DNA from: Candidatus Poseidoniaceae archaeon
GTDB lineage: Archaea > Thermoplasmatota > Poseidoniia > Poseidoniales > Poseidoniaceae
DNA length: 64,000 nucleotides
Direction of reading: 5' to 3'
Assembly (NCBI GenBank): GCA_045568435.1
Contig: JBJLBB010000001.1
Coordinates: 100,305-164,304 of the forward strand
Each line of letters starts with the position of its first letter. Within the stretch, counting starts at the first letter, position 1. This document shows positions 6,552 to 30,902 of this stretch, piece after piece. The notes below the pieces were generated by a model, which ran no database searches, had not been told where the DNA came from, and saw only the letters and a program-made list of their open reading frames with translations. A program made the translations under genes and the position numbers.

Positions 6552-7094
6552 ATGGAAGATATCAAAGTACATGCCATTTGGTTAGCTCAAGACGACCCAA
6601 AAAAAAACACAGCGGTATTAGCATCTCGGCGTGGCGACTTAAAACTCCATAAAAATCTTCGAAGCATACCGCGAAAAGGGGTAATTTTAGAACCGCTTTG
6701 TGGGAAAATATTTGGCCCTGAAGACCATGAATTACTTACTGTTAAGCACGGTTCACTCGTTGGTTTAGATTGTAGTTGGGCACAAATTGAAAGTAGTGTT
6801 GAAACTGTAATGAAAAGAACTAGACTTGTTCCTAGAATGCTACCATTACTTTTAGCTGCTAATCCGGTTAATTGGGGTAAACCGAGTAAATTGACTACGG
6901 CTGAAGCTCTTGCTGCAGCATTATATCTTACTGGAAGAATTGAGCAAGCGAAAAATGTACTTGGAGCATTTCGATGGGGAAATAGATTCTTTGAACTTAA
7001 TAAAGAACCTCTTGATGCATATCGTATGGCTAAGTCTAGTTCTGAATTAGTAGATCTTCAGTTTGAATTTTTTGACATTGAACATCTGAGGTGA
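6552..7094 (+). CDS. tsr3: 16S rRNA aminocarboxypropyltransferase (DUF367)
   Basis: DDPKKNT, LDCSW, RMLPLLLAANPVNWGKP.KLTTAEA, FRWG..FFELN. Confidence 0.92.
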   Translation: MEDIKVHAIWLAQDDPKKNTAVLASRRGDLKLHKNLRSIPRKGVILEPLCGKIFGPEDHELLTVKHGSLVGLDCSWAQIESSVETVMKRTRLVPRMLPLLLAANPVNWGKPSKLTTAEALAAALYLTGRIEQAKNVLGAFRWGNRFFELNKEPLDAYRMAKSSSELVDLQFEFFDIEHLR

Positions 7095-7098
7095 TATT

Positions 7099-7881
7099 AT
7101 TACCAATACTGAAAAAACCCCAATATCCCGTTGGAATGGTATTTCTACAGAAATTGAAACAGATGAATTAGCTTGTGAAGCATTAATCATTTTAAATTAT
7201 AATGAAACCGTGATTGCTAATTTACTAGGAACTCCTGCAGATATTCATGAATTGATGATAGGCCACCTTGTATGTGAGGGCTATCTAAATTCAAACTTAG
7301 AATTTCTTAAGGAGAGTTTATTTCAAGTTGAATTATCATCAAAAAGTTTCCTTGCAAAAATTTCTTCTGAACAAACAATTACTAATCCAGATAATTCTAA
7401 TCGTTTAGTCACTTCTTCATGTGGGGCTTGTAATAACGATGATTTAGAACAGTTGATTTCTGATTTACCTCTTATTGAAAAAGATATGAGGGCGGTAGAT
7501 TTCGAATCACTCAATCGATTATTCAGTTCAATGAGAGAATTTCAGAAAGGTTTCCAATCAACCGGAGGAATGCATGCAGCAGGAATAACAGATTTAAATG
7601 GTAATTTATTATATGTCATGGAAGATATCGGCAGACATAATGCCGTAGACAAAGTAATTGGTAAAGCATTGAAAGAGGACATAGATATTTCAAAGAGTCA
7701 ATTATTGCTATCCGGTCGATGTGGCTGGGATATTGTTGCTAAGGCAAGTAGATGTGGAGTTCCAAATATTGTTAGTATTGGTGCTTGCTCATCTCTGGCC
7801 GCTAAAGCCGCTAGATACACTGGGGTCCGATTAATTTCATTCCTCAAACCCGATAATGCCGTCATAATCGGCCATAATTAG
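7099..7881 (+). CDS. fdhD: Formate dehydrogenase accessory sulfurtransferase, inferred ATT start
   Basis: SSCGAC, TGGMHAAG, EDIGRHNAVDKVIG, SGR. The FdhD-like N-terminus (DELACE...GTP.DIHELMIGHL.CEG) extends 37 codons upstream of GTG 7210 with no ATG/GTG/TTG and an in-frame stop at 7087. Confidence 0.88.
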   Translation: MTNTEKTPISRWNGISTEIETDELACEALIILNYNETVIANLLGTPADIHELMIGHLVCEGYLNSNLEFLKESLFQVELSSKSFLAKISSEQTITNPDNSNRLVTSSCGACNNDDLEQLISDLPLIEKDMRAVDFESLNRLFSSMREFQKGFQSTGGMHAAGITDLNGNLLYVMEDIGRHNAVDKVIGKALKEDIDISKSQLLLSGRCGWDIVAKASRCGVPNIVSIGACSSLAAKAARYTGVRLISFLKPDNAVIIGHN

Positions 7882-7925
7882 TATTTACAACAGTAAGCCT
7901 TGAAACCCTCGGGCATGAGCGCAAA

Positions 7926-10223
7926 ATGAGGAGCATGAGAAAACCAGTTTCACACAATGTTCCGCTCGACCAAAATCGTCTGCGTTTGACAAAACCCAAA
8001 AAGCAGGCAGCAGGTATTCCAGCAGTTATTTCCTCGGGAAAACATTCATTGAAAAAAATGGGAATTACTCGTACGGTAAAATCCTTGACAATGGTTAATC
8101 AGAAATTAGGTTTTGATTGCCCTGGCTGTGCTTGGCCTGATCCTGAACACCGTACACATTTCGAATTTTGTGAAAATGGTGCTAAGGCTGTTGCTGATGA
8201 AGCAACTAAAGCAAGGGTTGGAGCAGCATTTTTTAGCAAATATTCTATTCAAGATTTGGCTAATAGAAGTGATTATTGGTTAAATAATCAAGGTCGGATT
8301 ACCGAGCCGATGTTTCTTGATAAGAATTCCAATAACTACTCACCTATCTCATGGGACGATGCTTTGTCAAAAATATCTAACAAACTAAACACTCTTAGTA
8401 GCCCTAATAAAGCAGTTTTCTACACATCTGGTAGGACAAGTAATGAGGCTGCTTTTTTATATCAAGCTTTTATTCGTTCTTTTGGAACAAATAATTTACC
8501 TGATTGTTCCAATATGTGCCATGAGTCGAGCGGTAAGGGTCTTGGTTCGACAATAGGAATAGGTAAAGGGACTGTCAGATTAAATGATTTTAACCATAGT
8601 GATTTAATTCTAGTAATCGGTCAAAATCCCGGTACAAACCATCCAAGAATGCTTACTGCACTAAGAGATGCAAAGAAAAAGGGTAGTAAAATCATCCATG
8701 TCAATCCATTGCCAGAGGCTGGACTAGAGCGTTTTAAACATCCACAAGATTATATGAAGTTAGATTTCAAGTCGACTAAGTTATCAGATTATCATTTACA
8801 AGTAAAAATAGGTGGAGATGCGGCCTTAATCAAAGGATTAATCAAGGTACACATCGAATTAGGTGGACTTGATTTAGATTTCATCAATAATTCTACTACG
8901 GGATTCCAATCAATGTGTGAAAATGCTAGAAACACTCCTTGGGACCGAATTGTTCGTGATTCAGGGGTGGACAGGGCACTTATCGAGGAAGTTGGGTCAT
9001 TATGCGCACGTTCTAAAGCAACTATTGCTTGTTGGGCTATGGGTTTAACTCAACATAGAAATGGTGTATCGGTTATCCAGGAAGTTGTTAATTTATTACT
9101 AATTGGAGGTCATGTCGGTCGCAAAGGTGCAGGTTTTTGCCCTGTGCGGGGTCATTCAAATGTACAGGGAGATAGGACAGTTGGAATTTGGGAAGCACCT
9201 AGTGATTCATTCTTGGATAAAATGGAATTGGGACTAAAAGTTGCACTACCTAGAAAACACGGATATGACGTTGTTAATTCAATAAAAGCCATGGATTCTG
9301 GTGAAGTTGATGTTTTCTTCTGTATGGGTGGAAACTTCATTTCCGCAACTCCTGATACCAAATTTACTGCTGATGCACTTTCAAATGTCGATTTGGTTGT
9401 ACAAGTTTCAACTAAATTGAATCGTTCACACGTAGTAACGGGTCGAGAGGCACTAATCTTACCGTGCCTAGGCCGAACAGAATTGGATGTACAACAATCT
9501 GGAGAGCAATTTGTTTCTGTTGAGAATTCTATGGGTATAGTTCACATGTCAAGAGGAAATCTGAAACCTGCTTCTAAGAGCCTTAAGAGTGAACCTTGGA
9601 TTGTTGCAAGTCTGGCTGATAAAACTCTAGAAGAGAGTCCGATTCAATGGCTCGATTTGATAGATTCTTATGATAATATAAGAGATTTAATGAGTGAAAG
9701 CCTGTTTGGATTTGAAGATTATAATTCGCGTGTTAGAGATCAAAATGGTTTCTATCTGCCAAATCCGCCTCGAGATAGTCGAACCTTTGAAACAAATGAT
9801 GGAAAAGCACATTTTACGACTCATAGTCTTCCATCGTTAGATGTTGAAAGCGACCAATATGTAATGATGACTTTGCGCTCACACGACCAATATAACACTA
9901 CTATTTACGGACTTGATGACCGTTATCGGGGAATAAAAGGTAATCGAAGAATTTTGATGATGAATTCATTAGATATGCTTGATAGAAATTGGAAAACACG
10001 TCAAATTATCGATATAACTAGTCATTTTGAAAGTGAAACTAGAGTTTCTAAAAATTGGTTGGTTATACCATATGATATTCCATCCGGCAATATCGCTGCA
10101 TATTTCCCAGAAGCAAATGAATTAGTGCCTTTGAATTCTACTGCTGAACTATCTAATACACCTACCTCGAAGTGGATTGTTTGTTCGCTAGGCGAATCAA
10201 ATAATTCTGATGAGGAGGAATGA
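7926..10223 (+). CDS. FdhF/YdeP-family molybdopterin oxidoreductase
   Basis: GFDCPGCAWPDP, FCENGAKA, SGRTSNEAA, NNLPDCSNMCHESSG, RGHSNVQGDRTVG, TLRSHDQYNTTIYG. Confidence 0.92.
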   Translation: MRSMRKPVSHNVPLDQNRLRLTKPKKQAAGIPAVISSGKHSLKKMGITRTVKSLTMVNQKLGFDCPGCAWPDPEHRTHFEFCENGAKAVADEATKARVGAAFFSKYSIQDLANRSDYWLNNQGRITEPMFLDKNSNNYSPISWDDALSKISNKLNTLSSPNKAVFYTSGRTSNEAAFLYQAFIRSFGTNNLPDCSNMCHESSGKGLGSTIGIGKGTVRLNDFNHSDLILVIGQNPGTNHPRMLTALRDAKKKGSKIIHVNPLPEAGLERFKHPQDYMKLDFKSTKLSDYHLQVKIGGDAALIKGLIKVHIELGGLDLDFINNSTTGFQSMCENARNTPWDRIVRDSGVDRALIEEVGSLCARSKATIACWAMGLTQHRNGVSVIQEVVNLLLIGGHVGRKGAGFCPVRGHSNVQGDRTVGIWEAPSDSFLDKMELGLKVALPRKHGYDVVNSIKAMDSGEVDVFFCMGGNFISATPDTKFTADALSNVDLVVQVSTKLNRSHVVTGREALILPCLGRTELDVQQSGEQFVSVENSMGIVHMSRGNLKPASKSLKSEPWIVASLADKTLEESPIQWLDLIDSYDNIRDLMSESLFGFEDYNSRVRDQNGFYLPNPPRDSRTFETNDGKAHFTTHSLPSLDVESDQYVMMTLRSHDQYNTTIYGLDDRYRGIKGNRRILMMNSLDMLDRNWKTRQIIDITSHFESETRVSKNWLVIPYDIPSGNIAAYFPEANELVPLNSTAELSNTPTSKWIVCSLGESNNSDEEE

Positions 10224-11470
10224 TTTTGCAATCTGGTTATTTCTCCTTTTTTAGGAAGAATTCTAAATTTAGAAGATTTTGGTTCGCTTCAGTCATCTCT
10301 TGGATAGGAGAATGGTTCAATACAATAGCACTTTTCTTTTTGATTTTAGAATACTCGGGCTCGGAATTTTTACTTGGAGTTCTTTTCAGCGTAAGGATGG
10401 CATTATTTGCAATTTCACAACCGATTGTAGGTGTTTTGGCTGACAGAATAAATAGAAAGAAATTGATGATATTCTCTAATGTAATTCAAATTGGACTTGC
10501 ATTAACATTCCTTCTTGTAGATGGTGAGGAAGACATGTGGTGGCTTATCGCAGTCTCCGGAGTAATGATGCTTTCACACGGATTCTATGTTACTGCTGAG
10601 CGTGCTGCTTTACCCAATATAGTCGCTGAGGAAGACTTGCTAACGGCCAATGCTATAGATTCTGCCTCTTGGTCAGCTTCGCTATGTATTGGTGCAATGC
10701 TGGGTGGTATTGTTGTATCTGAGTGGGGTACTGATGTTGCATTCATTTTGGATTCGTTGACATTCGCTATTGGTGCTCTTATTCTCTTGCCAATGAAAAT
10801 ACCACAAACCGTAGATGAAAAACTAAAAGGTCCAATATTTTCCACAGCCATTCAAAATATCAAAACCGGTTGGGATAGAATTAGTAGTGACCCGCGACTT
10901 TTACGATTGGTTTTTGCTAAATCTTCATGGAATCTTGCTGGTGCAGGACTTGCAGGGGTTTTCCTTGTTTTGGCTGGTGGAGATCTTGATGGTTATGGAG
11001 CAGCCTTTGGTTTCGGACTATTCTTTTTCGCTAGAGGTATAGGTACGGGGATAGGTCCTCTAGCAGCAAGGACCTTCTTCAAAGATCAAACAAAGTGGCC
11101 GTCATTAATTGGATTACTTGTATCCTTATCTGGAGTGTTTTATTTCTTCGTCGGAATTTCTCTAGATATGGCACTTCCAATAACTATTGCATTCATTATT
11201 TTAGCACATGCTGCAAGTGGTGCTAATTGGGTTCTTTCTACAGTTTTAACTCAGATGTGGGTTGAAGATGAGGTAAGAGGTAGAGTATTTTCTATGGATA
11301 TGCTTATTTTAGGTGCTTCAGCAACCTTTTCTACGACAATAGCCGGTTTTTTGGTAGAAAGTTATGATTTAGCATTGGATAAGGGGATGATGATTTTCTC
11401 ATTTATTATGATTTTTTCAGGGCTTGTGTTTACATTTTGGAGACCTGACTTGAAGCAAGCGAAGAATTAA
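10220..11470 (+). CDS. MFS transporter
   Basis: About 12 hydrophobic segments, motif A GVLADRINRK, RGRVFS; ATGA overlap with the upstream gene. Confidence 0.88.
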   Translation: MILQSGYFSFFRKNSKFRRFWFASVISWIGEWFNTIALFFLILEYSGSEFLLGVLFSVRMALFAISQPIVGVLADRINRKKLMIFSNVIQIGLALTFLLVDGEEDMWWLIAVSGVMMLSHGFYVTAERAALPNIVAEEDLLTANAIDSASWSASLCIGAMLGGIVVSEWGTDVAFILDSLTFAIGALILLPMKIPQTVDEKLKGPIFSTAIQNIKTGWDRISSDPRLLRLVFAKSSWNLAGAGLAGVFLVLAGGDLDGYGAAFGFGLFFFARGIGTGIGPLAARTFFKDQTKWPSLIGLLVSLSGVFYFFVGISLDMALPITIAFIILAHAASGANWVLSTVLTQMWVEDEVRGRVFSMDMLILGASATFSTTIAGFLVESYDLALDKGMMIFSFIMIFSGLVFTFWRPDLKQAKN

Positions 11471-11512
11471 TTGAATCATAATCCTCAAAGACAATGCAGT
11501 ATAGCGTCACCT

Positions 11513-13543
11513 ATGGGCGATAATGGGTCTTCACTTAGAGATTCAATCTCGTTAGGTATTCCCGACCAATTACCTGAACACCCTGGTCTTGATGATTCGG
11601 TTGACCATGCACCAGATAGGAGACAAGTTTTGAGCCCGAGCGAGAAAAAACTCGCTCTAAAGAATGCTCTCAGATATTTCAGTCGAGAACATCATGAAGT
11701 TCTCGCTCCTGAGTTTCTACAAGAATTAAATTCCTTTGGTAGAATAATTATGAATCGATTTAGACCGACTGAGTATCAAATGAAAGCTCATCCAATTTCG
11801 CATTACCCTGCTAATTCCCTTCAAGCAGCATCAATAATGTTGATGATTCAAAATAATCTCGACCCCGCTGTGGCTCAATTCCCTCATGAGTTAATCACAT
11901 ATGGTGGAAATGGTTCTGTTTTTCAAAACTGGGCACAATACAGATTAACTATGAAGTATCTATCTCAAATGTCAAATGACCAAACTTTGGTAATGTATTC
12001 TGGACATCCAATGGGATTATTCCCTTCTCATCAAAATGCTCCGCGTGTTGTCGTGACTAACGGAATGGTTATTCCAAATTATTCATCGGTCAATGATTAT
12101 GAGAAAATGAATTCCTTGGGAGTCACTCAATATGGTCAAATGACTGCTGGTTCATACATGTACATTGGACCTCAAGGTATTGTTCATGGCACTACTCTAA
12201 CACTACTCAATGCTGCTAGAATACATCTTAATTTAGATCCCGAAAAGGACCTTTCAGGAATTACATTTGTTACTTCAGGTCTTGGAGGGATGTCAGGCGC
12301 TCAAGCAAAAGCCGCAGTAATTGCAGGCGCATCTTCAATAGTGGCCGAAATCAATCCTCATGCAGCAAAAAAGCGACATGAACAGGGTTGGTTGAGTGTA
12401 CTTTCATATGATGTAGATGAAGCCATAGATTTGATGCTAAGCAATGCCGAATCGGGTACTGCAATATCCATTGGATTTGTTGGTAACATTTCGGACTTGT
12501 GGTCAAGATTAGTAGAAAGAAATGTCCATGTAGACTTAGGCAGTGACCAAACTAGCCTTCACAATCCATGGCAAGGCGGATACTTTCCTTCTGGATACAC
12601 TTATGAAGAGTCATCGGATTTAATGTCTAAAGATAGTGATTTGTTTTGTCAAAAGGTACGTGAAACATTACTTGAACACATATCGAGTATTCAGAAAATG
12701 ACCGAACGGGGGATGTATTTCTGGGATTATGGCAATGCGTTTTTATTAGAAGCTTCAAGAGCGGGAGCGGATATTAAAAATCCTGATGGCGGATTTATTT
12801 TCCCTAGTTATGTTGAAGACATTATGGGTCCAATATGTTTTGATTATGGATTTGGACCATTTAGATGGGTTTGCTGCTCAGGGGACCCTGAGGATTTAGA
12901 AACAACGGATAAAATTGCTTGCGATATTTTATCTCAAATGGCTATTGATGCACCAGATACAATTAAACAACAACTCAATGATAATATTAGATGGATTAAG
13001 CAAGCAGGACAAAATAAAATGGTCGTCGGAAGTCAAGCAAGAATCCTCTATGCTAATGATGAAGGCAGGAGAAATATTGCTAGCGCTATGAATGCTGCAA
13101 TTGCAGATGGACGTCTAAAGGGTCCTGTCGTACTTGGTAGAGACCACCATGATGTTTCAGGCACTGATAGTCCATTTAGGGAAACTGCCAATATCTCTGA
13201 TGGTTCTATGTTTACTGCAGATATGGCAGTTCAGAACTTCGTTGGAGATGCCTTTAGAGGTGCAACTTGGATAAGCCTCCACAATGGAGGAGGAGTTGGA
13301 TGGGGAGAGGTTATCAATGGAGGATTTGGTATGCTGATAGATGGCTCCAAGAGTTCGGAAGATAATATTCAATCAATGCTTCACTGGGATGTAAATAATG
13401 GAGTTGCCAGAAGAGCGTGGGCTCGAAATGATGGTGCGATTGAAGCGATTAAGGATGCTATGGACAAAGAACCTAAATTAATAGTCACTTTACCACAAAA
13501 AGCACAAGAGGGTCTTATCGACTCACTATTCACAGGGGAGTGA
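11513..13543 (+). CDS. hutU: Urocanate hydratase (long form)
   Basis: HELITYGGNG, QMTAGSYMYIGPQGIVHGT, GLGGMSGAQ, SDQTSLHN, GRDHHDVSGTDSPFRET. About 676 aa with an N-terminal extension; ATG 11513 preferred over TTG 11471. Confidence 0.95.
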   Translation: MGDNGSSLRDSISLGIPDQLPEHPGLDDSVDHAPDRRQVLSPSEKKLALKNALRYFSREHHEVLAPEFLQELNSFGRIIMNRFRPTEYQMKAHPISHYPANSLQAASIMLMIQNNLDPAVAQFPHELITYGGNGSVFQNWAQYRLTMKYLSQMSNDQTLVMYSGHPMGLFPSHQNAPRVVVTNGMVIPNYSSVNDYEKMNSLGVTQYGQMTAGSYMYIGPQGIVHGTTLTLLNAARIHLNLDPEKDLSGITFVTSGLGGMSGAQAKAAVIAGASSIVAEINPHAAKKRHEQGWLSVLSYDVDEAIDLMLSNAESGTAISIGFVGNISDLWSRLVERNVHVDLGSDQTSLHNPWQGGYFPSGYTYEESSDLMSKDSDLFCQKVRETLLEHISSIQKMTERGMYFWDYGNAFLLEASRAGADIKNPDGGFIFPSYVEDIMGPICFDYGFGPFRWVCCSGDPEDLETTDKIACDILSQMAIDAPDTIKQQLNDNIRWIKQAGQNKMVVGSQARILYANDEGRRNIASAMNAAIADGRLKGPVVLGRDHHDVSGTDSPFRETANISDGSMFTADMAVQNFVGDAFRGATWISLHNGGGVGWGEVINGGFGMLIDGSKSSEDNIQSMLHWDVNNGVARRAWARNDGAIEAIKDAMDKEPKLIVTLPQKAQEGLIDSLFTGE

Positions 13544-13547
13544 AATT

Positions 13548-15092
13548 ATTACTACAATAACTCTTGATGGTAACACGCTATCTTCATCTGAGATTTGGCG
13601 CGTGGCTACTGGTAATGCTGAAGTTGACATCTCCCAAAGTTCTTGGGATAGAATTATCAAATCACGCAAGGTAGTTGAAGATATTTTACAAAGTGGGGAA
13701 ATTGTTTATGGAATCAATACTGGTTTTGGTGCACTAGTAAACCAAACAATTTCCGACAAAGATTTACAACAATTACAAGTTAATCTAATTCGTTCACATG
13801 CCACTGGAATCGGTGAATTAATGTCGAAAGAGTCTGTTAGGGCTATGATGACTGCAAGAATTAATTCATTTGCTAAAGGTTACTCAGGAGTCCACCCTAA
13901 TGTAGTCCAACAATTACTCGACTTCATCAACTTAGACATTACGCCAGCTATACCGCGTATCGGTAGCCTCGGTGCCAGTGGTGATTTAGCACCTCTTTCG
14001 CATATGGCATTAGCATTGATAGGAGAGGGTGAAGTATTAATTGAAGGAAATAAAGTTTCTAAAACTAAAGAGGTTATAGTTGAAAAGGGACTTATACCGC
14101 TAGAATTGGGTGCAAAGGATGGTTTATCGCTAATCAATGGTACAAGTCAAATGTTGAGTTTACTAGTAGAGTCAGAACAAATTCTCTCACAATTACTACC
14201 ACTTGCTGACATCATAATGTGTGCTTCTCTAGAGGCATTCAAAGGAACAGCAGTTCCTGCAGATTCTAGAGTTCATGATGCAAGGCCTCACCCGGGGCAA
14301 AAATTAGTGGCATCTAGAATAAGACAAATCATGTCACAGTCAGAAATACTTGCTAGTCACGCAGATTGTGGTAAAGTGCAAGACCCTTACTCATTTAGGT
14401 GTGCACCACAAGTACATGGGGCAGTAAATGAAAGCCTAATGCAACTAAGGTCGACGTTGGAAATTGAAATCAACAGCACCACAGATAATCCATTAGTGTT
14501 TTTTGATAGTGAAGATGATGAGCAAAAGATTGTTTCTCAAGGTAATTTCCATGGAGAAATATTAGGATTAGTAGCAGATAAAATGTCACTTTCTATCTTT
14601 GAATTGGCTTCTATAAGTGAGAGAAGGATGGATCAATTGCTCGATAATAAGAAAAGTGGACTGCCGCCATTTTTAGCTTCTAACAGCGGTCTTGAATCAG
14701 GACTCATGATTGTACAATATGTCGCAGGTGCGTCCTTGTCTGAACTTCATGGCCATGCAGCACCCAGGACAGCATTCTCAACCAGTACTTCTGCTGGACA
14801 AGAAGACCATGTTAGCATGGGCGCAACTGCCTGTTGGAATTTATTACAAGCAACTCAAAGATTGTCTGAAGTACTTGCTTGCGAACTACTTATTGCTTGC
14901 CAAGCACTGGAATTCGAAAGTTTAAAACCATCACCATTCATCCAATCAATTGTTAAATTAGTGAGAGATATTTCACCAAAAATTGAATCTGATAGATCCA
15001 CTAGTAGTGATTTAATTGCAATTTCTAATTCTCTTAAAGAAGGCGGATGGCTATCTAGAATTGAAGCAGAGAATAGTAGACTTTCTAATTAG
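13548..15092 (+). CDS. hutH: Histidine ammonia-lyase, inferred ATT start
   Basis: VYGINTGFG, MIO-forming GASGDLAPL, QDPYSFRC.PQVHG, GNFHG, QEDHVSMG. The typical N-terminus TITLDGNTLS lies upstream of GTG 13602 with no canonical start codon in frame. Confidence 0.93.
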   Translation: MTTITLDGNTLSSSEIWRVATGNAEVDISQSSWDRIIKSRKVVEDILQSGEIVYGINTGFGALVNQTISDKDLQQLQVNLIRSHATGIGELMSKESVRAMMTARINSFAKGYSGVHPNVVQQLLDFINLDITPAIPRIGSLGASGDLAPLSHMALALIGEGEVLIEGNKVSKTKEVIVEKGLIPLELGAKDGLSLINGTSQMLSLLVESEQILSQLLPLADIIMCASLEAFKGTAVPADSRVHDARPHPGQKLVASRIRQIMSQSEILASHADCGKVQDPYSFRCAPQVHGAVNESLMQLRSTLEIEINSTTDNPLVFFDSEDDEQKIVSQGNFHGEILGLVADKMSLSIFELASISERRMDQLLDNKKSGLPPFLASNSGLESGLMIVQYVAGASLSELHGHAAPRTAFSTSTSAGQEDHVSMGATACWNLLQATQRLSEVLACELLIACQALEFESLKPSPFIQSIVKLVRDISPKIESDRSTSSDLIAISNSLKEGGWLSRIEAENSRLSN

Positions 15093-18229: not shown

Positions 18230-18230
18230 A

Positions 18231-18654: not shown

Positions 18655-18730
18655 TGGTGGGCTCGGAGAGAATTGAACTCTCGATCTTCGCCATGTCAAG
18701 GCGACGTCATAACCCCTAGACCACGAGCCC
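18655..18730 (-). tRNA. tRNA-Val(GAC), CCA encoded
   Basis: Reverse complement GGGCTCGTGGTCTAGGGGTTATGACGTCGCCTTGACATGGCGAAGATCGAGAGTTCAATTCTCTCCGAGCCCACCA; anticodon stem TCGCC/GGCGA with loop TT-GAC-AT; T-loop GTTCAATT. Confidence 0.96.
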
Positions 18731-19209: not shown

Positions 19210-19527
19210 TTATGATCTTGTAAAAATATCAGCATCGATGTCGAAAATGCCTACCAATGGAGGGCCAATTAGGCACGATTGAACTCCGCCATCGCTAGTG
19301 TCCAGTTTTTGCTGAGATGATTCTGAAATAGATTTCATTGATTCTCTGTCATCAAAAACCGATTGGAAAATGAATAGAAAATCATCGTCTGAAGATTTGG
19401 CATACCAAGAACGAATACAGCCATCTTGCCGATTTCTAAATTCAACTCTTGATGAAAGCATTCTTTCCAATCGAGCTTCATTACCTGGCTTGGCAGAACA
19501 AACAACTGTTTCTAAAATTCTTGGCAT
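19210..19527 (-). CDS. Antibiotic biosynthesis monooxygenase (ABM)-like dimeric alpha/beta barrel protein
   Basis: AKPGNE..LE..L....QDGCI......DDDFLFIFQSVF pattern; 105 aa. Confidence 0.6.
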   Translation of the reverse strand: MPRILETVVCSAKPGNEARLERMLSSRVEFRNRQDGCIRSWYAKSSDDDFLFIFQSVFDDRESMKSISESSQQKLDTSDGGVQSCLIGPPLVGIFDIDADIFTRS

Positions 19528-21954: not shown

Positions 21955-22041
21955 GGCTGATTTAGAAGCCAATGGTTTTAAGAGGTCGTCTTAGGGCTAA
22001 TATTAGGGGAATGCTGTATCGCAGGTAGAAGGAAGAAAGAT

Positions 22042-22884: not shown

Positions 22885-22888
22885 AAAT

Positions 22889-23392: not shown

Positions 23393-23467
23393 CATGCTAA
23401 AACCTGCAATTATGACGGTTGCTGTTGATACAGTAGGCTTGATGAATCGTCAGCACTTGGAACGGCT

Positions 23468-25069
23468 ATGGCTGAACAGCGTCGTGAAGTCTGGGAGACA
23501 CTTTCTGGCATTGATTTACCCATGAATCCAGATCAGGATTCTATGATTCAATCTGGCTCTATTGCGTCAAAAACCCCTAACGCTGGCAGTCCACCCTATA
23601 CTCGGGGGATTTATTCGACAATGTATCGGTCTAGACTTTGGACGATGCGTCAATATGCAGGTTTTTCAAGTGCTAAGGAAACAAATGAACGATTTAAATT
23701 ATTGCTTGGGCGCGGTCAAAAAGGACTTTCAGTCGCTTTTGACTTACCGACTCAATTAGGCCTTGATGCAGACGACGAACTCTCTCTAGGAGAGGTTGGA
23801 AAGGTAGGTGTATCTATTTCTACACTAGACGATATGAGAGAATTATTTGATGGCATTCCATTGGGTAAAGTTAGTACTTCAATGACGATAAACGCTCCTG
23901 CAATGGTGCTTCTAGCGATGTACGCAATAGTTGCTGAAGAACAGGGAGTAAGTATCGATCAAATTCGAGGAACTATTCAAAATGATATTCTCAAAGAATA
24001 TATCGCAAGAGGTACATATGTATTCCCACCAAAACCAAGTATGCGACTTATTACAGATATTTTCTCATATTGTTCTCAAAACATACCAAACTGGAATACA
24101 ATATCTATTTCGGGATATCATATTAGAGAAGCAGGCTGTACTGCTGTTCAAGAAGTAGCATTTACTCTTGCCAATGCTCTAGCTTACGTTGACGCTGCAT
24201 TAGAAGCAGGATTGGACATTGATAGTTTTGCACCAAGACTTTCCTTCTTTTTCAATTGTCATAATGACTTTTTTGAAGAAGCATCGAAGTTTAGAGCAGC
24301 ACGTAAGTTATGGTATGATTTGATGAATGAGAGATATAGCCCAAAACATCCTAAATCAAGTATGCTTAGATTCCATACTCAAGTAGCAGGAGTGAGTCTT
24401 ACTGCCCAACAGCCACTGAACAATATTTCAAGAGTGACAATACAAGCCTTAGCAGCAATTTGTGGTGGAACTCAAAGTCTTCACACGAATTCATATGATG
24501 AAGCAATAGGACTTCCCACTGAAGAGAGTGCCACTATTGCTCTTAGAACTCAACAAATAATTGCTGAAGAAAGTGGTGCTGCTGATGTAGCAGACCCACT
24601 AGGCGGTTCATACCATGTCGAAACACTAACTCAGAAAATCTATGACTTATCGATGGAGCAAATCTCCACTATTGAAAAAATGGGTGGTGCAATGGCGGCG
24701 ATTGAAGAAGGTTGGCAACAAAGAGAGATTCATAATTCAGCTTTCAAGCATTTGAAAGAAGTGGAGAGTGGAGTTAGGAAAATAGTTGGAGTGAACCATG
24801 GTGTGATGGAGGAAAACCTTCAGCATAAACCAATGTCAATCAATGCTGAAGTAGAGAAGAACCAATGTGATAAATTATCTAATTGGAGGGCGAATAGAAG
24901 TCAATCTGAAGTTGATATGGCTTTAGAGGTCATTACAAAAGCTTGTCAGACAGGCGATAACTTATTCCCACTTGTAATGAATGCGCTCAGAGTTGATAGC
25001 ACCCTGGGTGAAATTATGAATTCAATGAAAAAAGAATTTGGTACATGGATGGCCCCTAGTGGATTTTAG
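23468..25069 (+). CDS. mcmA1: Methylmalonyl-CoA mutase, substrate-binding (N-terminal) subunit
   Basis: PYTRGIY..MYR.RLWTMRQYAGF, GLSVAFDLPTQ, GTIQNDILKEY, QSLHTNSYDEA; no B12-binding domain. Confidence 0.93.
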   Translation: MAEQRREVWETLSGIDLPMNPDQDSMIQSGSIASKTPNAGSPPYTRGIYSTMYRSRLWTMRQYAGFSSAKETNERFKLLLGRGQKGLSVAFDLPTQLGLDADDELSLGEVGKVGVSISTLDDMRELFDGIPLGKVSTSMTINAPAMVLLAMYAIVAEEQGVSIDQIRGTIQNDILKEYIARGTYVFPPKPSMRLITDIFSYCSQNIPNWNTISISGYHIREAGCTAVQEVAFTLANALAYVDAALEAGLDIDSFAPRLSFFFNCHNDFFEEASKFRAARKLWYDLMNERYSPKHPKSSMLRFHTQVAGVSLTAQQPLNNISRVTIQALAAICGGTQSLHTNSYDEAIGLPTEESATIALRTQQIIAEESGAADVADPLGGSYHVETLTQKIYDLSMEQISTIEKMGGAMAAIEEGWQQREIHNSAFKHLKEVESGVRKIVGVNHGVMEENLQHKPMSINAEVEKNQCDKLSNWRANRSQSEVDMALEVITKACQTGDNLFPLVMNALRVDSTLGEIMNSMKKEFGTWMAPSGF

Positions 25070-25077
25070 GTGATGTT

Positions 25078-25506
25078 ATGGTTAAGAAAATTTATCTAGA
25101 CCATATTGGAATTGCTACATCTGATTTGAATGAATCTTCAGTTTTCTGGAATTTAATAGGTCTAATTCAAGGCGAAGAGGACGAAATAGTTGAAGACCAA
25201 GGAGTAAAGACAAGATTCTTCGATACTTCGAAAAATAATCCGTCGATAAAATCACCTAAGATCGAATTATTAGAACCTACATCTAGTGATACGCCTATTG
25301 GGAAATTCCTTGATAAAAGGGGCCCTGGGATCCAGCAAATTTGTTTTAGAGTGGAAAATTTACCTGAAATGATATCATTGTTGAAGAATAATGGAGTTTT
25401 AATGATAGATGAGGAGCCACGAATAGGAGCAGGTGGCAAACATATTGCTTTTGTACATCCAAAATCTACTGGAGGCGTTTTAGTAGAACTAACTCAATAT
25501 GATTAA
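25078..25506 (+). CDS. mce: Methylmalonyl-CoA epimerase
   Basis: LDHIGIA, IELLEP, GIQQICFRV, AFVHPKSTGGVLVEL; adjacent to mcmA1. Confidence 0.93.
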   Translation: MVKKIYLDHIGIATSDLNESSVFWNLIGLIQGEEDEIVEDQGVKTRFFDTSKNNPSIKSPKIELLEPTSSDTPIGKFLDKRGPGIQQICFRVENLPEMISLLKNNGVLMIDEEPRIGAGGKHIAFVHPKSTGGVLVELTQYD

Positions 25507-25546
25507 AATCATAACAACCATAATCTACCTAAGGATAAATGATAAC

Positions 25547-25852
25547 ATGCGAACCTGTATCGACCATTTGATTGCCCTTTCCCATATCGACGGACCACGT
25601 GTCAAGAAAGAGGCATCATTCTTATCCACAAGGTTGGAAGCACTGAGAATGAGCAAGAATATTACTAATGATGCTTATCTTGATGCTGGTGCAATACAAG
25701 GAGCATTTGAGATGATTGCACACCTTATTGACATGGGCGTCTCTCAAAAAGAGATACATTCTCAATTAAGACAACAATTAGATCGTGCTAGAAATATTGA
25801 ATTAAAGCATCCTGGATTAAATGATGCCATTGAACAAGGTCGAGCGAGTTGA
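25547..25852 (+). CDS. Hypothetical helical protein
   Basis: ORF fills the gap between mce and the ABC ATPase; ATG 25547 preferred. Confidence 0.6.
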   Translation: MRTCIDHLIALSHIDGPRVKKEASFLSTRLEALRMSKNITNDAYLDAGAIQGAFEMIAHLIDMGVSQKEIHSQLRQQLDRARNIELKHPGLNDAIEQGRAS

Positions 25853-25860
25853 TATGAACT

Positions 25861-26694
25861 ATGTCTAAAACTCTAATGACAATATCCAATGTCTCGAAGA
25901 GTTTTGGTGATGTTGAGGCACTTAGAGAAATTTCTCTTGATATTAATTCAGGAGAAGTAGTTGGACTTGTTGGAAGTAATGGTGCTGGAAAAACAACTTT
26001 GCTCAGATTGATGTCAGGTGTTTACAAACCTAGCAAGGGCACTGTGTGCTTGGATGATGGCACTCCTGTTGATAAGATGCGTCAGAAATTAGGAGTTGTC
26101 CCTGAATCAACCGGCCTGTATTCACGACTTACTGCATGGGAAAATATACGCTATCACAGTAGGATGCATGGTGTGAGTGATGATGATTCATGGAATAGAA
26201 CTTCGAGATTTGCTAAGCATTTGGACATGTTAGAAAATCTTGGACGTCATACCAAGGGATTTTCCAGAGGTATGAAACAAAAGACAGCACTTTTGCGTGC
26301 TTTGGCCCACGGTCCAAGTGTATTGCTACTCGATGAACCAACTGCTGGACTTGATATAACCAGTGCAAGAACAGTTCGCGCACTTGTTAGACAGCTTAGG
26401 GATGAAGGCGGAACAATTGTATATTCTACACATCATTTGGCAGAGGCGGAACAAGTTTGTGATCGAATTATAATTATACACAATGGAGACATTCAAGCTG
26501 ATGGTTCTCCAACTAAGTTACTCGAAGCTACAGATTCTAAAAACTTGGAAGAAGCATATGTTTCACTCACTCAGGAAAAAGCACGCCCGCGTAATGATGA
26601 CTCTGAGTCTGAAGGTAAGTTCACTCGTTGGTGGCGGAGATTATTCACTCCCAAAACACCAAAAACAGTTTCAGGAGATGATTCAAGTGAGTAA
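25861..26694 (+). CDS. ABC transporter ATP-binding subunit (NatA-like)
   Basis: GSNGAGKTT, FSRGMKQK signature, LLLDEPTAGLD, H-loop STHH. Confidence 0.93.
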   Translation: MSKTLMTISNVSKSFGDVEALREISLDINSGEVVGLVGSNGAGKTTLLRLMSGVYKPSKGTVCLDDGTPVDKMRQKLGVVPESTGLYSRLTAWENIRYHSRMHGVSDDDSWNRTSRFAKHLDMLENLGRHTKGFSRGMKQKTALLRALAHGPSVLLLDEPTAGLDITSARTVRALVRQLRDEGGTIVYSTHHLAEAEQVCDRIIIIHNGDIQADGSPTKLLEATDSKNLEEAYVSLTQEKARPRNDDSESEGKFTRWWRRLFTPKTPKTVSGDDSSE

Positions 26695-27907
26695 AGGGTC
26701 ATTCAATAGAGTAAAGTCGATTGCCAAGAAAGAGGTTGTTGAATTTACTAGAGATTGGCGAACAATTATTGCAATTATCGTCATTCCAATACTAATGTTC
26801 CCTCTTTTATTTATTATGTTCCCATTACTACTTGAATCTGAAGCAGCGGAATTAGATTCAATTGTCGTAGATGTAGTCATACAGTCTGATGATAATCCTG
26901 AAACTTTAATACAACAATTCAATTCATCTTCGATTAATATTCTGCAAGAAAATATATCCAGCACACCACCATTATCGGAGCCTGGAGATGATATTGAGAG
27001 GTTGCGGAGTTTATCGATTGATGCTATTTTAAGGGTTGAACAAAGAGATGATGTATGGTATTATGCAATTATACATATTTCGACGTCCGAAAGTTCGAAT
27101 GAAGCGAGAAGTCGTATTATTGAAGGATTGATTGCTTGGGAGAATATTGAGACTGAGCGGATTATTTCAGAACAAGGTCTCGATGTCAATTCGACTCTCA
27201 ACCCGGTTAGATGGGATGGAGATGTTTCTCAAGGAGATGTTGCAACCCAAGGTGAACAGGCTGGAATGGTGTTATCTCTATTTATTCCATTAGTACTAGC
27301 AGTTTGGACTTTTTCAAGTGCCATTCAACCTTCCATTGATATGACGGCAGGTGAGCGAGAAAGAGGTACATTGGAGGCTTTGCTAAGTTTACCATGTACT
27401 AGAAATGAACTTCTATTAGGTAAGTGGCTTGCAGTTGCTACAATTACAGGTGTTGGAGTAATATTACAGATTTTTGGTTTGCTATTTGCAATTGGTTACC
27501 TTGCATCATCTAGCATAATTGGGATACCTGACCTTTCGATGGAGGCTATAATGTTGATAGTAATATCAATAATGTTGTTTGCAGTAATGGTTGTAGCACT
27601 AGAATTAGCTTTAGCCATGCGTTCCCATAGTGTCAAAGAAGCAGGGTCTATCCTCGGGCCCGCAATTATTTTGATAATATTCCCAGCATTATTTACTCAA
27701 GTAATAAATCTTGATGGTGTAGAGAATTTCTGGTTTGCAGTACCTGTAGTAAATGTATTATTAGCACTAAGAGAATTATTGATGGACAGAGTAATTGTTG
27801 AACATATCGCTATTTGGTTTGGAACTTCGCTATTGTATGCATTGTTGGCAGCATACTATGCTGCTAAGCAGTTTGGCCGTGAAGACATAGTTACTAGTCT
27901 ATCATGA
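26687..27907 (+). CDS. ABC-2 permease (NatB-like)
   Basis: TAGERERGTLEALLSLP, GKWLAV, SVKEA; GTG 26687 preceded by GGAGA. Confidence 0.88.
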   Translation: MSKGSFNRVKSIAKKEVVEFTRDWRTIIAIIVIPILMFPLLFIMFPLLLESEAAELDSIVVDVVIQSDDNPETLIQQFNSSSINILQENISSTPPLSEPGDDIERLRSLSIDAILRVEQRDDVWYYAIIHISTSESSNEARSRIIEGLIAWENIETERIISEQGLDVNSTLNPVRWDGDVSQGDVATQGEQAGMVLSLFIPLVLAVWTFSSAIQPSIDMTAGERERGTLEALLSLPCTRNELLLGKWLAVATITGVGVILQIFGLLFAIGYLASSSIIGIPDLSMEAIMLIVISIMLFAVMVVALELALAMRSHSVKEAGSILGPAIILIIFPALFTQVINLDGVENFWFAVPVVNVLLALRELLMDRVIVEHIAIWFGTSLLYALLAAYYAAKQFGREDIVTSLS

Positions 27908-29404
27908 AAATGCCTTGATGGCATCTCTGACAATATCGATTATCATATCGATCTCACCTGATGTTATTCTAAAGTGAGGTGTGAACCTCAAGGCATTAAT
28001 TCCCCCATGTATTACTCCAAGACCACGTCTTCTGCACCAAGGCTCAACAGCATCGAAACCTACTACAGGGAAACGTGATGGGTCTAATTCAGCACTAACT
28101 AGCAACCCAGTTCCTTGGACCTTTGTGATAGTGCCTGGTAATTCCTCGGCTAATTCCTTAAGTTTAGCAACAAACTCAACACCCCTGTCTCTTATGTTAT
28201 TACGCAATTCTGGAGTCATTTGCTCCAACACCGAGACTGCAATCTCTAATGCTCTAGGGTTTGTAGTCATTGTATTTCCATAAATCCCAACAACATACAT
28301 TGATGCTGCTCTATCATTCATTCCTAATACGGACAAAGGATATTGACCAGCATTGATTGCTTTGGACCAAGTTTCAAGGTCAGGAGCTTCAGCATCTTGA
28401 AAACCTTCGTAATCGATAACTGATAAACATCCCTGGCCCCTAATACCTGCTTGAATCGAATCAACTAAAAACATCGAATCATGTTCAAGGGTTAGTTTAC
28501 GGGCTTCATCATAGAACTCTCTAGAGATGCATTGACCAGGATTCCCTTCACCTTGTACTGGTTCTACTGCCAATAATTCGATAAAGAATTTTTCATCGAT
28601 AGAGCGTTGAAATACTTCACGAAGAGATTCAATGTCATTGGCAGGTACTAAGATTAAATTATCGCGGTTTTGGAAACTGGCAAGATTCTTATCATAACCA
28701 GACATACATGAGTGGGATATTTGAGCAGGTCTGTCGGTACGACCGTGGAAACTCCTAACAATAGATACCATCTTGATGGGATATCCATCATATTTAGCAC
28801 CTTTAGAAGTCATTCGATTAGCGTTAACATCAGCTATTCTTAGAGCCACAGTAACAGACTCAGAACCACTATTCATGCAAATAAACTTAGAGAAAGGGCA
28901 ACTGCCTCTAGTATGGCCAAGTTCTGCTTTGAGTGCCTCAGATAATCTCTTCTGACTAAATGAAGGTGTCATTACATTAGCCATGACCCAGTTTTTAGAC
29001 ATAGTTGAAATCACTGAATCTGGTCCATGGCCAGCACCCAACATTCCATATCCTCCATTATCATGGACCACTGCTCCATGCGAAGTCACTATCCAAGGTC
29101 CTTTGGCTGAAAGCGCAACATATGGATTAACAGTTGCTGGGGCATAAAAATTTACAATATCACTTTGAAGTTCATCAACTAATGATTTTTCTTCCATCAT
29201 CATCAGATCACTGCCCATAGAAGTTGCTAATTCCTTATGAGTATCATAACCTTCATTTATAGCAGTCACAAGAGTTTCATCGACTTTACAGAATTGCTTG
29301 ATTATATCGTCAGAAAGTCCAGCGGTATCCATATCACCACTATTTTCCCTTATGGAGTACAACTTTGACATTATCCCGTCAGCGTCAATCATTACTGTCA
29401 TCAA
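27902..29404 (-). CDS. lat: Class III PLP aminotransferase, L-lysine 6-aminotransferase type
   Basis: GPWIV...GAVVHDNGGYGMLG.GH, NSGSE, SFHGRTDRP, EPVQGEG, DSIQAG, TWSKA, YGNTMTTNPRA; colinear, from memory, with Flavobacterium lutescens Lat. Confidence 0.75.
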   Translation of the reverse strand: MMTVMIDADGIMSKLYSIRENSGDMDTAGLSDDIIKQFCKVDETLVTAINEGYDTHKELATSMGSDLMMMEEKSLVDELQSDIVNFYAPATVNPYVALSAKGPWIVTSHGAVVHDNGGYGMLGAGHGPDSVISTMSKNWVMANVMTPSFSQKRLSEALKAELGHTRGSCPFSKFICMNSGSESVTVALRIADVNANRMTSKGAKYDGYPIKMVSIVRSFHGRTDRPAQISHSCMSGYDKNLASFQNRDNLILVPANDIESLREVFQRSIDEKFFIELLAVEPVQGEGNPGQCISREFYDEARKLTLEHDSMFLVDSIQAGIRGQGCLSVIDYEGFQDAEAPDLETWSKAINAGQYPLSVLGMNDRAASMYVVGIYGNTMTTNPRALEIAVSVLEQMTPELRNNIRDRGVEFVAKLKELAEELPGTITKVQGTGLLVSAELDPSRFPVVGFDAVEPWCRRRGLGVIHGGINALRFTPHFRITSGEIDMIIDIVRDAIKAFS

Positions 29405-29477
29405 CCATTCTCCATTGGCGGAGACTATTCAACATTCGCTTTTTGTCATCGTGAATTAATTAAATACTCGAATGAAA

Positions 29478-29516
29478 TAATACTCTAGTATTACTATAGT
29501 AATATTAATTAATACT
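29478..29516. promoter_or_regulatory. Palindrome array, candidate RHH operator
   Basis: TAATACT-CT-AGTATTA (29478-29493), perfect TATTACTATAGTAATA (29489-29504), TATTAATTAATA (29503-29514), directly upstream of the RHH gene. Confidence 0.5.
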
Positions 29517-29533
29517 TAGTGGCAGGATTAGTC

Positions 29534-29713
29534 ATGCCTAAAGTTTCACTTGACATGCCTGCTGAGATTATCGGCGATCTAAGATTACATGTTGGCGATG
29601 AAAGGAAATTCGTTAGCCTAGCCGATGCAATAAGGACTGCCTGTAGAAAATTACTCGACCAATTAGATGACATTGATTCGAGGCATGGAAGAAATAATGG
29701 AGGAGATTTATAA
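29534..29713 (+). CDS. Ribbon-helix-helix (CopG/MetJ-like) regulator
   Basis: MPKVSLDMP beta-ribbon, then helices IIGDLRLHV and SLADAIRTACRKLL; its stop overlaps the folE ATG (TAATG). Confidence 0.75.
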   Translation: MPKVSLDMPAEIIGDLRLHVGDERKFVSLADAIRTACRKLLDQLDDIDSRHGRNNGGDL

Positions 29714-30282
29714 TGACTACAAGAGATGAAGCAATGGAGGCTGTTAGCACTTTACTTTCATATTTAGAAAAGGATTACAAACGTGAAGGACTACTATCAA
29801 CTCCCAAAAGAGTTGTAGATTCTTGGGATGAAATTTTTTCGGGATATAATGAAAACTCAGGTGAGATATTAGATGCGACATTCAATGGAGAAGGGTACGA
29901 TGGTATCGTTTTACTTAGAGATATAGAATTTCATTCGACATGTGAACATCACCTGCAACCATTCAATGGTAGGGCTCATGTTGCATACATACCAGTTGAC
30001 AGAATAGTTGGGATAAGTAAACTATCGAGAATTGTTGATCTACATGCTAAGAGATTGCAAAACCAAGAGCGAATAACAAAAGGAATCGCTGATGACTTAG
30101 AGTCTCACTTATCACCACTTGGTGCTGCAGTAATTATTGAGGCATCACATGGCTGCATGCGATGTAGAGGTGTGAAGAAACAAAATGCTGTAATGACTAC
30201 ATCAGCAATGCGTGGAGTCTTTTTCGATAAGCAAGAGGCAAGACAGGAATTGATGCAGTTGATACAATCAAAACCACTCTGA
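29713..30282 (+). CDS. folE: GTP cyclohydrolase I
   Basis: STCEHHLQPF.G, GISKLSRIV, QNQERIT, HGCMRCRGV. Confidence 0.95.
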   Translation: MTTRDEAMEAVSTLLSYLEKDYKREGLLSTPKRVVDSWDEIFSGYNENSGEILDATFNGEGYDGIVLLRDIEFHSTCEHHLQPFNGRAHVAYIPVDRIVGISKLSRIVDLHAKRLQNQERITKGIADDLESHLSPLGAAVIIEASHGCMRCRGVKKQNAVMTTSAMRGVFFDKQEARQELMQLIQSKPL

Positions 30283-30305
30283 ACAATTAACGTAGAGGGA
30301 TTATT

Positions 30306-30902
30306 ATTACGACCTATCCAATTGTCGAAATTTTTCACTCTGTTCAAGGAGAAGCATATCACATGGGCAAGCCCCATGTTTTTGTACGATTTGGAAATTG
30401 TAATCTAAGATGCGAATGGTGTGACACAAACTTTCTAGAATATGATGAGATGGAGTTGCAAGACATTGTCAAACAGGTCCTTTCATATGGTTGCGAACGA
30501 GTGATATTTACTGGTGGAGAACCATGTCTACAAGATTTAGAAACTATCGGGAATGAATTGAAGAAATATGATCTTAACCTATCTGTTGAAACGAATGGAA
30601 CTATTGATGTCCCCGAGGTTATTGATTGGATATGTGTTTCACCTAAAGATCAATTATATCCAAACACTAAGATATCTCAAACCACAGGTAATGAATTGAA
30701 GGTAGTTTACTGTGGTCAAGACTTATCGATGTATGATAATTTGAAAGGTGGTTTTACACACCTTTACTTACAACCTTGCTATATTGAAAGCATGTCTGTA
30801 GAAGAGAATGGCAAGAACTTCGCACTTGTTGAAGAATTAGTAAAAAATAATCCTGGGTGGAGGTTATCTCTCCAGACTCATAAATGGATGGGGGTAGACT
30901 AA
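30306..30902 (+). CDS. queE: 7-carboxy-7-deazaguanine synthase (radical SAM), inferred ATT start
   Basis: CNLRCEWC, FTGGEP, ETNGT, CVSPK, RLSLQTHK. The conserved IVEIFHSVQGE lies upstream of ATG 30363, with an in-frame stop at 30288 and no ATG/GTG/TTG between. Confidence 0.92.
   Translation: MTTYPIVEIFHSVQGEAYHMGKPHVFVRFGNCNLRCEWCDTNFLEYDEMELQDIVKQVLSYGCERVIFTGGEPCLQDLETIGNELKKYDLNLSVETNGTIDVPEVIDWICVSPKDQLYPNTKISQTTGNELKVVYCGQDLSMYDNLKGGFTHLYLQPCYIESMSVEENGKNFALVEELVKNNPGWRLSLQTHKWMGVD

Follow-up and report, generated by a model that had tools for sequence, protein, structure and literature searches.

Initiation of translation at AUU is established in Bacteria, where infC, pcnB and Staphylococcus aureus cvfC1 are known to start with this codon. 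The present work deals with three genes, fdhD, hutH and queE, which are probably translated from AUU in an uncultured marine Candidatus Poseidoniaceae archaeon. They are located in a stretch of 64,000 nucleotides (contig JBJLBB010000001.1, positions 100,305 to 164,304 of the forward strand), called the window in the following, whose proteins have homologues labelled Poseidoniaceae or Poseidoniales, i.e. marine group II. In Escherichia coli infC and pcnB, AUU is the sole start codon of a normal gene, follows a Shine-Dalgarno (SD) motif, limits translation and is conserved in relatives, and the archaeal genes seem to resemble them in these points. Unlike the E. coli genes they belong to an organism with aIF1 as fidelity factor, each of the three is an internal cistron of an operon, and in fdhD and hutH the upstream stop codon is just 4 nt away. 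Furthermore, the AUU codon of E. coli infC serves as a sensor in an autoregulatory loop in which IF3 polices AUU. FdhD, HutH and QueE are not initiation factors, neither IF3 nor aIF1, and therefore do not constitute a feedback device of the infC type; a sensing of initiation fidelity, considered in a preliminary description of the window, found no support.

As in the genes treated here, conserved AUH starts at a short and fixed distance from the SD motif were reported for S. aureus cvfC1 (AUU), ccpN (AUA) and infC (AUA) (PMC13009471). Combined with an extended SD motif, such conserved AUU and AUA starts yield about 10 % of the output of AUG (PMC13009471). The long pairing between SD and anti-SD in S. 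aureus can be likened to that of fdhD, which possesses the longest SD of the window, and to an ATA start of tsr3 with an SD of eight bases in another contig (L087), whereas hutH and queE are without an extended contiguous SD. The S. aureus cases were validated by ribosome profiling with retapamulin and by reporters, whereas those presented here are inferred. In addition, cvfC1 is the first gene of its operon, in contrast to the internal and apparently coupled genes of the window.

For Archaea, a review of translation initiation lists AUG, GUG and UUG as the only start codons (PMC7531240), and near-cognate sites detected in Haloferax volcanii by ribosome profiling were disregarded because they might be false positives (PMC7261190). 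In vitro, aIF1 discriminates against AUU on the archaeal 30S subunit (PMC4705826). A comparable case is the Asgard tubulin gene atubA from a metagenome-assembled genome, whose deposited protein is too short and in which an upstream ATT restores a conserved N-terminal strand together with a plausible distance to the ribosome-binding site (PMC13394414). That proposal concerns one gene in one genome and relies on the completeness of the fold, whereas here several genes, many genomes and a saturated synonymous background can be compared. Termination-reinitiation is described for co-directional archaeal genes which are not more than 10 nt apart and of which the upstream one carries the SD at its end (Huber et al. 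2019; PMC10666635); this resembles the present arrangement. However, those pairs use ATG or GTG, typically in ATGA or TGATG overlaps, and not an ATT 4 nt past the stop codon. The literature search yielded no paper about start codon use in marine group II, and the naturally conserved AUU starts in Archaea, traced here by comparative genomics, would extend a known kind of initiation.

AUU codons at the N-termini of fdhD, hutH and queE

The sequences at 7099, 13548 and 30306 were re-read from the window and agree exactly with the preliminary description. Its statement that in each gene an in-frame stop codon and a family-conserved N-terminus precede the first ATG, GTG or TTG was confirmed as well. 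All three genes are encoded on the plus strand. The start context of fdhD is GAGGTGA-TATT-ATT-ACC with the proposed initiation codon at 7099-7101, and its frame contains a TGA at 7087-7089 followed by GGT GAT ATT ATT ACC. The SD GAGGTGAT (7088-7095) includes the TGA (7092-7094) which ends the upstream Tsr3-like gene. The re-annotated coding sequence (7099-7881), with matches to Pfam PF02634 and TIGR00129, would encode a formate dehydrogenase accessory sulfurtransferase of 260 amino acids. In hutH the context is GGAGTGA-AATT-ATT-ACT with the proposed initiation codon at 13548-13550. The frame reads ATT ATT ACT at 13545-13553, the nearest upstream in-frame stop is TAG at 13482-13484, and between this TAG and GTG 13602 the frame contains no canonical codon. 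An SD-like motif GGGGAGTGA (13535-13543) includes the hutU stop codon TGA (13541-13543). The predicted product of the re-annotated gene (13548-15092) is a histidine ammonia-lyase of 514 amino acids, which matches TIGR01225 and PRK09367 above the cut-offs from model position 1-2 onwards. The third gene, queE, has the context GAGGGAT-TATT-ATT-ACG with the proposed initiation codon at 30306-30308; a TAA at 30288-30290 is followed by CGT AGA GGG ATT ATT ATT ACG. Its SD-like GAGGGAT (30295-30301) equals GAGGTGAT with the T skipped and is separated from ATT by a 4-nt spacer. The re-annotated coding sequence (30306-30902) would specify a 7-carboxy-7-deazaguanine synthase of 198 amino acids matching TIGR04508 from model position 1.

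The in-frame stop codons are located 3, 21 and 5 codons ahead of ATT in fdhD, hutH and queE, respectively. The first canonical in-frame codons are GTG 7210, GTG 13602 and ATG 30363, with ATG, GTG and TTG absent before codons 38, 19 and 20. None of the three genes therefore offers a canonical alternative between the upstream stop and the interior of the conserved protein.

The codons which would be skipped by a downstream start behave as real protein. Counted from ATT, position 2 of the HutH profile PRK09367 corresponds to residue 3, position 5 of the FdhD profile PRK00724 to residue 5 and position 1 of the QueE profile TIGR04508 to residue 6. Residues 20-37 of FdhD, lost with a start at GTG 7210, align to residues 33-50 of E. 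coli FdhD (4PDE), and residues 3-23 of QueE, including the EIFxSxQGE segment, align to residues 22-42 of a solved QueE structure (4NJG). The amino acids are kept across species despite many synonymous changes, as expected from the claim that these codons are conserved as coding sequence. The canonical codons further downstream occupy non-homologous positions among species, the first one being offset by 15-38 codons in fdhD orthologues, and have no SD motifs. The ATT codons themselves align with Met-1 of the orthologues; ATG is found at this place in 14 hutH outgroup loci, at least five fdhD outgroup loci and more than 100 QueE homologues.

Canonical starts of the window are often preceded by SD motifs: runs of at least five bases occur at 15 of 53 starts compared to 1.7 % of all positions, and runs of at least four at 27 of 53 compared to 9.3 %. 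The usual register in the genome is GGTGA, four nucleotides and the start codon. The same spacing, already noticed earlier at ATG genes, was verified for mce (AGGTGA-TGTT-ATG at 25078) and archease (AGGTGA-TAAT-ATG at 58153). All three ATT codons have a ribosome-binding site at this functional spacing. With GAGGTGAT, fdhD reaches the maximal contiguous anti-SD match of eight bases, which exists at 10 of 128,000 window positions, and TGAGGTGA is kept upstream of fdhD in all ingroup loci (defined below). The SD-like motifs of hutH (GGGGAGTGA) and queE (GAGGGAT) match seven of eight bases, only with one base bulged; that of hutH is kept as CAGGGGAGTGA in all ingroup loci. The frequency of SD motifs in front of ATT was rejected as evidence, since a five-base SD plus ATT occurs at chance level with 29 such sites in the window. 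What exceeds chance in the sequence comparison is that the putative starts coincide with the family N-terminus, immediately follow an in-frame stop and are conserved across species.

Conservation of ATT in Poseidoniales

A HutH scan of species-representative genomes revealed 22 Poseidoniales loci which also carry fdhD about 6.5 kb upstream, and further contigs were added by look-ups of homologous proteins. Loci with 79-97 % identical HutH and 52-99 % identical FdhD were defined as ingroup. The aligned codon of fdhD is ATT in all nine ingroup loci (window, L001, L021, L041, L042, L045, L046, L047 and L048), and that of hutH in all eight (window, L001, L021, L041, L042, L043, L045 and L046). A scan of metagenome contigs added 80 loci, and those belonging to the ingroup clade likewise carry ATT in fdhD, which is now known from more than 16 different genomes. 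The comparison with other Poseidoniales also bears out the proposed position of the start, as distant Poseidoniaceae (HutH 62-67 %, FdhD about 45 % identical) have ATG at exactly the aligned codon. The hutU-hutH pairs of these outgroups show the classical ATGA overlap.

This conservation goes beyond that of an ordinary isoleucine codon in fdhD and hutH, which does not hold for queE. Codon identity at conserved residues is only 35-53 % in the ingroup and synonymous sites are saturated. Among 33 internal columns with Ile conserved in all species, just two consist of ATT throughout; thus, an ordinary Ile codon is expected to drift among ATT, ATA and ATC, whereas the two start columns did not. In every ingroup genome a TGA is situated three codons upstream in the fdhD frame. 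Any upstream canonical codon is missing for hutH in the window, L045 and L046, and the TTG or ATG picked by gene callers in the other ingroup genomes varies in position and belongs to hutU read out of frame. Across this clade of species, no candidate start of fdhD and hutH other than ATT is conserved.

A common signal ATT-ATT-ACN with Thr as second residue, as proposed initially, could not be recovered in the aligned relatives. In these, the start is preceded by ATT, TTT, AAT, TAT, CTC, ATA or AAA and followed by ACC, TCA, CCA, AGC, AGT, ACT, TCT or TCG as second codon. Residue 2 is commonly Ser or Thr but not universally, and priS, tsr3, DUF835 and the fdhD of L119 (see below) depart from it. 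Tandem ATT and ACN/Thr are therefore features of this genome and not a signal; the elements conserved in the alignments are SD, spacing and ATT alone.

Some relatives possess ATG. The start codon of fdhD in L053 is ATG, preceded by the same SD. The hutH start of L044 (920-940) reads ATG ATT, compared to ATT ATT in the close relative L021 (9990-10010); the ATG of L044 lies 1 nt past the SD and may hence be poorly placed. The difference between L044 and L021 looks like start codon turnover in progress, and both L044 and L053 indicate that reversion to ATG is possible.

The history of queE is different. More than 100 Poseidoniales QueE proteins consist of 198 amino acids and begin with M-x-x-YPIVEIFHSVQGE; the window protein reads I-T-T-YPIVEIFHSVQGE with ATT 30306 beneath the M of its homologues. 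This ATT is limited to one species-level cluster with about 99 % nucleotide identity, in which it is identical in nine independently assembled contigs from different samples, and the nearest relatives (85-86 % amino acid identity) carry ATG. In the stretch of 19 codons from ATT to the internal ATG, the changes at which both relatives agree and the window differs are all synonymous. By this comparison the proposed queE start is a recent single-base change from ATG to ATT, fixed in one species, and its function as a start is less well supported than in fdhD and hutH. The three genes had been regarded as one phenomenon: they appear to share the AUU start but not a single origin, as ATT is old and clade-wide in fdhD and hutH and recent in queE.

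Probable initiation at AUU and competing explanations

With a probability of roughly 0.8, fdhD, hutH and queE are translated from AUU at 7099, 13548 and 30306 in an SD-anchored manner, with reinitiation in fdhD and hutH and a low rate of translation under selection. The SD, GAGGTGAT in fdhD and a one-base-bulged version in hutH and queE, would pair with the 3' end of the 16S rRNA and thereby set AUU in the P site, 4 nt after GGTGA as at AUG genes. The initiator Met-tRNA would then read AUU with a mismatch at the third position and two of three positions paired, and the proteins should begin with Met and not with Ile. Such weak pairing is normally opposed by aIF1, and the output would be lower than from AUG. 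In fdhD and hutH, where the upstream UGA is located inside the SD and 4 nt before AUU, terminating ribosomes probably reinitiate on the spot, which would offset the weak codon. The maintenance of ATT over a long time in these two genes may reflect selection for a fixed low translation rate: ATG is one mutation away, ATA and ATC are synonymous in elongation, and the invariance of ATT therefore points to selection on the codon itself. The N-terminal peptides to be expected are (M)TTITLDGNTLSSSEIWR for HutH, (M)TTYPIVEIFHSVQGEAYHMGK for QueE and the TPISR/WNGISTEIETDELACEALIILNYNETVIANLLGTPADIHELMIGHLVCEGYLNSNLEFLK type for FdhD.

The distance from the upstream stop codon to the start is +4 nt in both fdhD and hutH, +23 nt in queE and +9 nt in the priS genes of L122 and L126, and the fdhD of L119 overlaps the stop. 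In H. volcanii, termination-reinitiation retains an efficiency of 40-60 % over 13-14 nt but ceases at about 22 nt, and distances up to +10 nt are treated as predicting coupling (PMC10666635). With a stop codon within 10 nt or overlapping, reinitiation on the spot is a plausible compensation for fdhD, hutH, the two priS genes and the fdhD of L119, whereas queE would need independent initiation.

Several observations weigh against initiation at AUU as outlined here, which is documented by comparative genomics only. The contiguous SD match of hutH and queE comprises just 4 bases and longer pairing requires a bulge, and the anti-SD sequence was deduced from motif enrichment and general archaeal knowledge. 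Some ingroup hutH genes have an in-frame upstream TTG or ATG overlapping hutU, from which a longer HutH product may arise in those genomes alone. The ATT of queE is not conserved beyond one species, its distance to the upstream stop exceeds the reinitiation range measured in H. volcanii, and the low-coverage contig L032 has three amino acid changes (T3P, F10Y and S12Y) in the 19 N-terminal queE codons.

The most serious competing explanation accepts AUU as start codon and denies it a regulatory role: tight coupling would make codon strength nearly irrelevant, and a change from ATG to ATT would be nearly neutral under AT-biased mutation in a genome with 38 % GC. The short stop distances of fdhD, hutH and priS (+4, +4 and +9 nt), the overlap in L119 and a GC content of 36-41 % in the window fit such neutrality. 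Furthermore, starts in this group turn over among ATG, GTG, TTG, ATT, ATA and ATC, and L044 and L053 have recovered or kept an ATG at the site or beside it. However, neutral evolution predicts a mixture of ATT, ATA, ATC and ATG at saturated divergence, whereas ATT is invariant in 9/9 and 8/8 loci, and queE lies 23 nt from the upstream stop, a distance at which reinitiation was abolished in H. volcanii. A neutral ATT is possible but rather doubtful.

For queE only, ATT might be slightly harmful or inactivating and fixed by drift, which would turn the gene into a hypomorph or an early pseudogene. The restriction of ATT to one cluster of about 99 % identity with ATG in relatives at 85-86 %, the weak SD, the stop codon 23 nt off and the three non-synonymous changes of L032 favour such a decay. 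It is nevertheless unlikely, because ATT is fixed in nine assemblies of different samples, eight of which are without any amino acid change in the 19 codons, the changes specific for the window are all synonymous in this region, an SD-like motif at 4-nt spacing is present, and the folE-queE-queC-queD operon is otherwise intact in the species of the window. The segment L032:9929-10000 corresponds to window 30291-30362, and the following 179 QueE residues of that contig are identical; its three changes are due to either error or relaxed constraint in that strain.

Translation from GTG 7210, GTG 13602 and ATG 30363, giving proteins without the N-terminal segment, is the output of standard gene callers (P0121 with 179, P0241 with 223 and P0005 with 504 amino acids). 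It is very unlikely, as the skipped segments vary synonymously while their amino acid sequence is conserved, and form part of solved folds, and the canonical codons are found at non-homologous positions without SD motifs.

Still less credible is recoding, i.e. fusion proteins which acquire their N-termini by frameshift or stop readthrough out of the upstream gene. In its favour, the upstream stop is just 4 nt before ATT in fdhD and hutH, and no stop codon interrupts the hutH frame in the 21 codons upstream. In queE, the stop TAA 30288 of its own frame is located downstream of the folE stop (30280-30282), so that no shift can join folE and queE and a fusion is excluded. In fdhD a shift would be confined to one codon between TGA 7087-7089 and TGA 7092-7094, and L047 has a second in-frame stop upstream. 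Moreover, the genes are separate in the outgroups and start with ATG, the sites are devoid of a slippery heptamer, and the combination of an open path with a slippery or recoding site was not found. Three RNA runs of unknown library type gave contigs with a depth of 2-9, one of them spanning the hutU-hutH junction, which are too fragmentary to inform on transcript starts or co-transcription.

According to the last explanation, ATG was misread as ATT in sequencing or assembly. It found no supporting point and is practically out of the question: at 7096-7101 and 13545-13550 the window sequence is reproduced by assembled contigs (used for this check rather than raw reads) of four runs from four studies (2014-2024) with a depth of 20-40, the queE codon is the same in nine independent assemblies, and more than 16 genomes have ATT in fdhD. 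The nearest variant in the contigs of the four studies is a synonymous C>T at 13601.

Further candidate AUH starts and consequences for annotation

Start columns were analysed for 1,393 open reading frames of 113 Poseidoniales loci (1.66 Mb) and cases were checked by hand; automatic detection was noisy for DUF835, a proteasome-ATPase-like gene and an EF-hand gene, which were inspected by hand or omitted. The gene priS of the primase small subunit has a putative ATT start in L122 (4545-4590) and L126 (1983-2030) with the context TGA GGT GGT ACN ATT TCN GGN TGG, and ATG, GTG or TTG at the same codon in about 35 other Poseidoniales orthologues. In both loci an in-frame TGA within the motif TGAGGTGGT is positioned three codons upstream of ATT, and the next canonical codon follows 19 codons downstream, past the conserved GWARFAHRF motif. 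Synonymous differences between L122 and L126 show that they represent distinct genomes. A candidate ATA start was found in tsr3 (Ribo_biogen_C; L087:14158-14748) behind a perfect AGAGGTGAT at the usual spacing, with ATG (L086 and L078) or TTG (L079) at the same codon of its closest relatives. Since this ATA was seen in a single contig, an error is possible. In the distant locus L119 (14740-14790) an fdhD with 44 % identity reads GGTGATGTAA ATT AAT TCC; ATT is preceded by an in-frame TAA and overlaps with the stop codon of tsr3, and relatives have GTG at the aligned position. Judging from the alignment, this apparent ATT start is of independent origin from that of the window clade. A DUF835 gene on the minus strand of L004 (11545-12444, start near 12414) has ATC ATC behind GGGGTGAG; its frame is closed by a TAA ten codons upstream, and the next canonical codon appears only 77 codons downstream. 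Its orthologues have ATG or TTG at this codon behind a conserved GGGGTGA. The DUF835 genes of L007 and L005 (ATC) and L003 (ATA) likewise have no canonical codon at this place, but an in-frame ATG exists upstream.

A lineage-wide initiation signal had been suggested for the ATT codons of the window. The recurrence of AUH starts in priS, tsr3, DUF835 and a second fdhD agrees with the wider occurrence, not with ATT-ATT-ACN as its signal. AUH starts account for about 0.3-0.6 % of gene instances if the three families which guided the sampling are excluded, and for 3 of about 58 genes in the window itself, for which about 65 had been counted earlier. These cases suggest a broader tolerance of AUH starts across the order Poseidoniales, with the frequency as a rough estimate. 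Among 61,358 ancestral AUG starts reconstructed in closely related prokaryotes a single switch to AUU was reported (PMC5622118), a comparison which is indicative only because evolutionary depths differ. More tentatively, the stringency of start selection in Poseidoniales may be relaxed or re-tuned, perhaps via changes of aIF1 or of the initiator tRNA. AUU, AUA and AUC behind a strong GGTGAT-type SD near an upstream stop would then form a regular and heritable class of starts in about 0.3-5 % of genes, among them essential genes like that of the primase small subunit, and would be kept by selection as a dosage setter within operons.

In the window and its orthologues a leader scan and a table of orthologue start codons gave no other ATT start; all starts checked were ATG, GTG or TTG. 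Apparent ATT starts in kae1 and in a small gene at 19527 turned out to be ATG starts shifted by one to three codons. The additional genes in 8 kb by which L049 extends the same species upstream of the window contain no further case. An MFS gene at 10220 was not counted as a variant, as a TTG two codons downstream has the correct SD spacing. The region 10220-10228 reads GAGGAGGA-ATG-ATT-TTG; the ATG abuts the SD and varies among relatives (ATG, GTG, ATA or GTA), and the TTG at 10226 is conserved with a proper aligned spacing of 4 nt and may be the true start.

The truncation by gene callers predicted in the preliminary description is evident in public protein models, with 218-245 amino acids for FdhD, 179 for QueE and 504 for HutH, and HutH is also over-extended to 523-536 amino acids. 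The HutH models P0001, P0003, P0004 and P0007-P0010 start at a chance TTG or ATG (window region 13482-13550), and the first 10-22 residues of the over-extended models are an out-of-frame reading of the hutU end; P0005 and P0006 are cut short and begin at an internal Leu codon. Over-extension and truncation alike are artefacts which result from ATT being ignored as start. Dozens of public FdhD, HutH and QueE clusters of marine group II are consequently wrong at the N-terminus, some truncated by 11-42 residues, and the error will recur whenever a caller limited to ATG, GTG and TTG is applied to a further genome of these abundant ocean archaea. Attempts to predict the structure of the truncated forms or to express them would probably fail. 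The maintained AUU starts may be a useful system for SD anchoring versus reinitiation versus codon proofreading on archaeal ribosomes, and for the way in which weak starts set protein ratios inside operons.

Two RNA genes and no others were detected in the window, both on the minus strand: a tRNA-Val(GAC) (18655-18730) and a signal recognition particle RNA (58894-59200), which is of the archaeal type and marks the window as archaeal. Within hutU, contigs of two runs (X25 and X27) omit 72 bases (24 codons, in frame; window 12085-12158), which may be a deletion variant of the population or an assembly artefact. The gene following queE (30884-32053) encodes QueC fused to a SelR/MsrB methionine sulfoxide reductase domain (PF06508 and PF01641), and this fusion is conserved in relatives.

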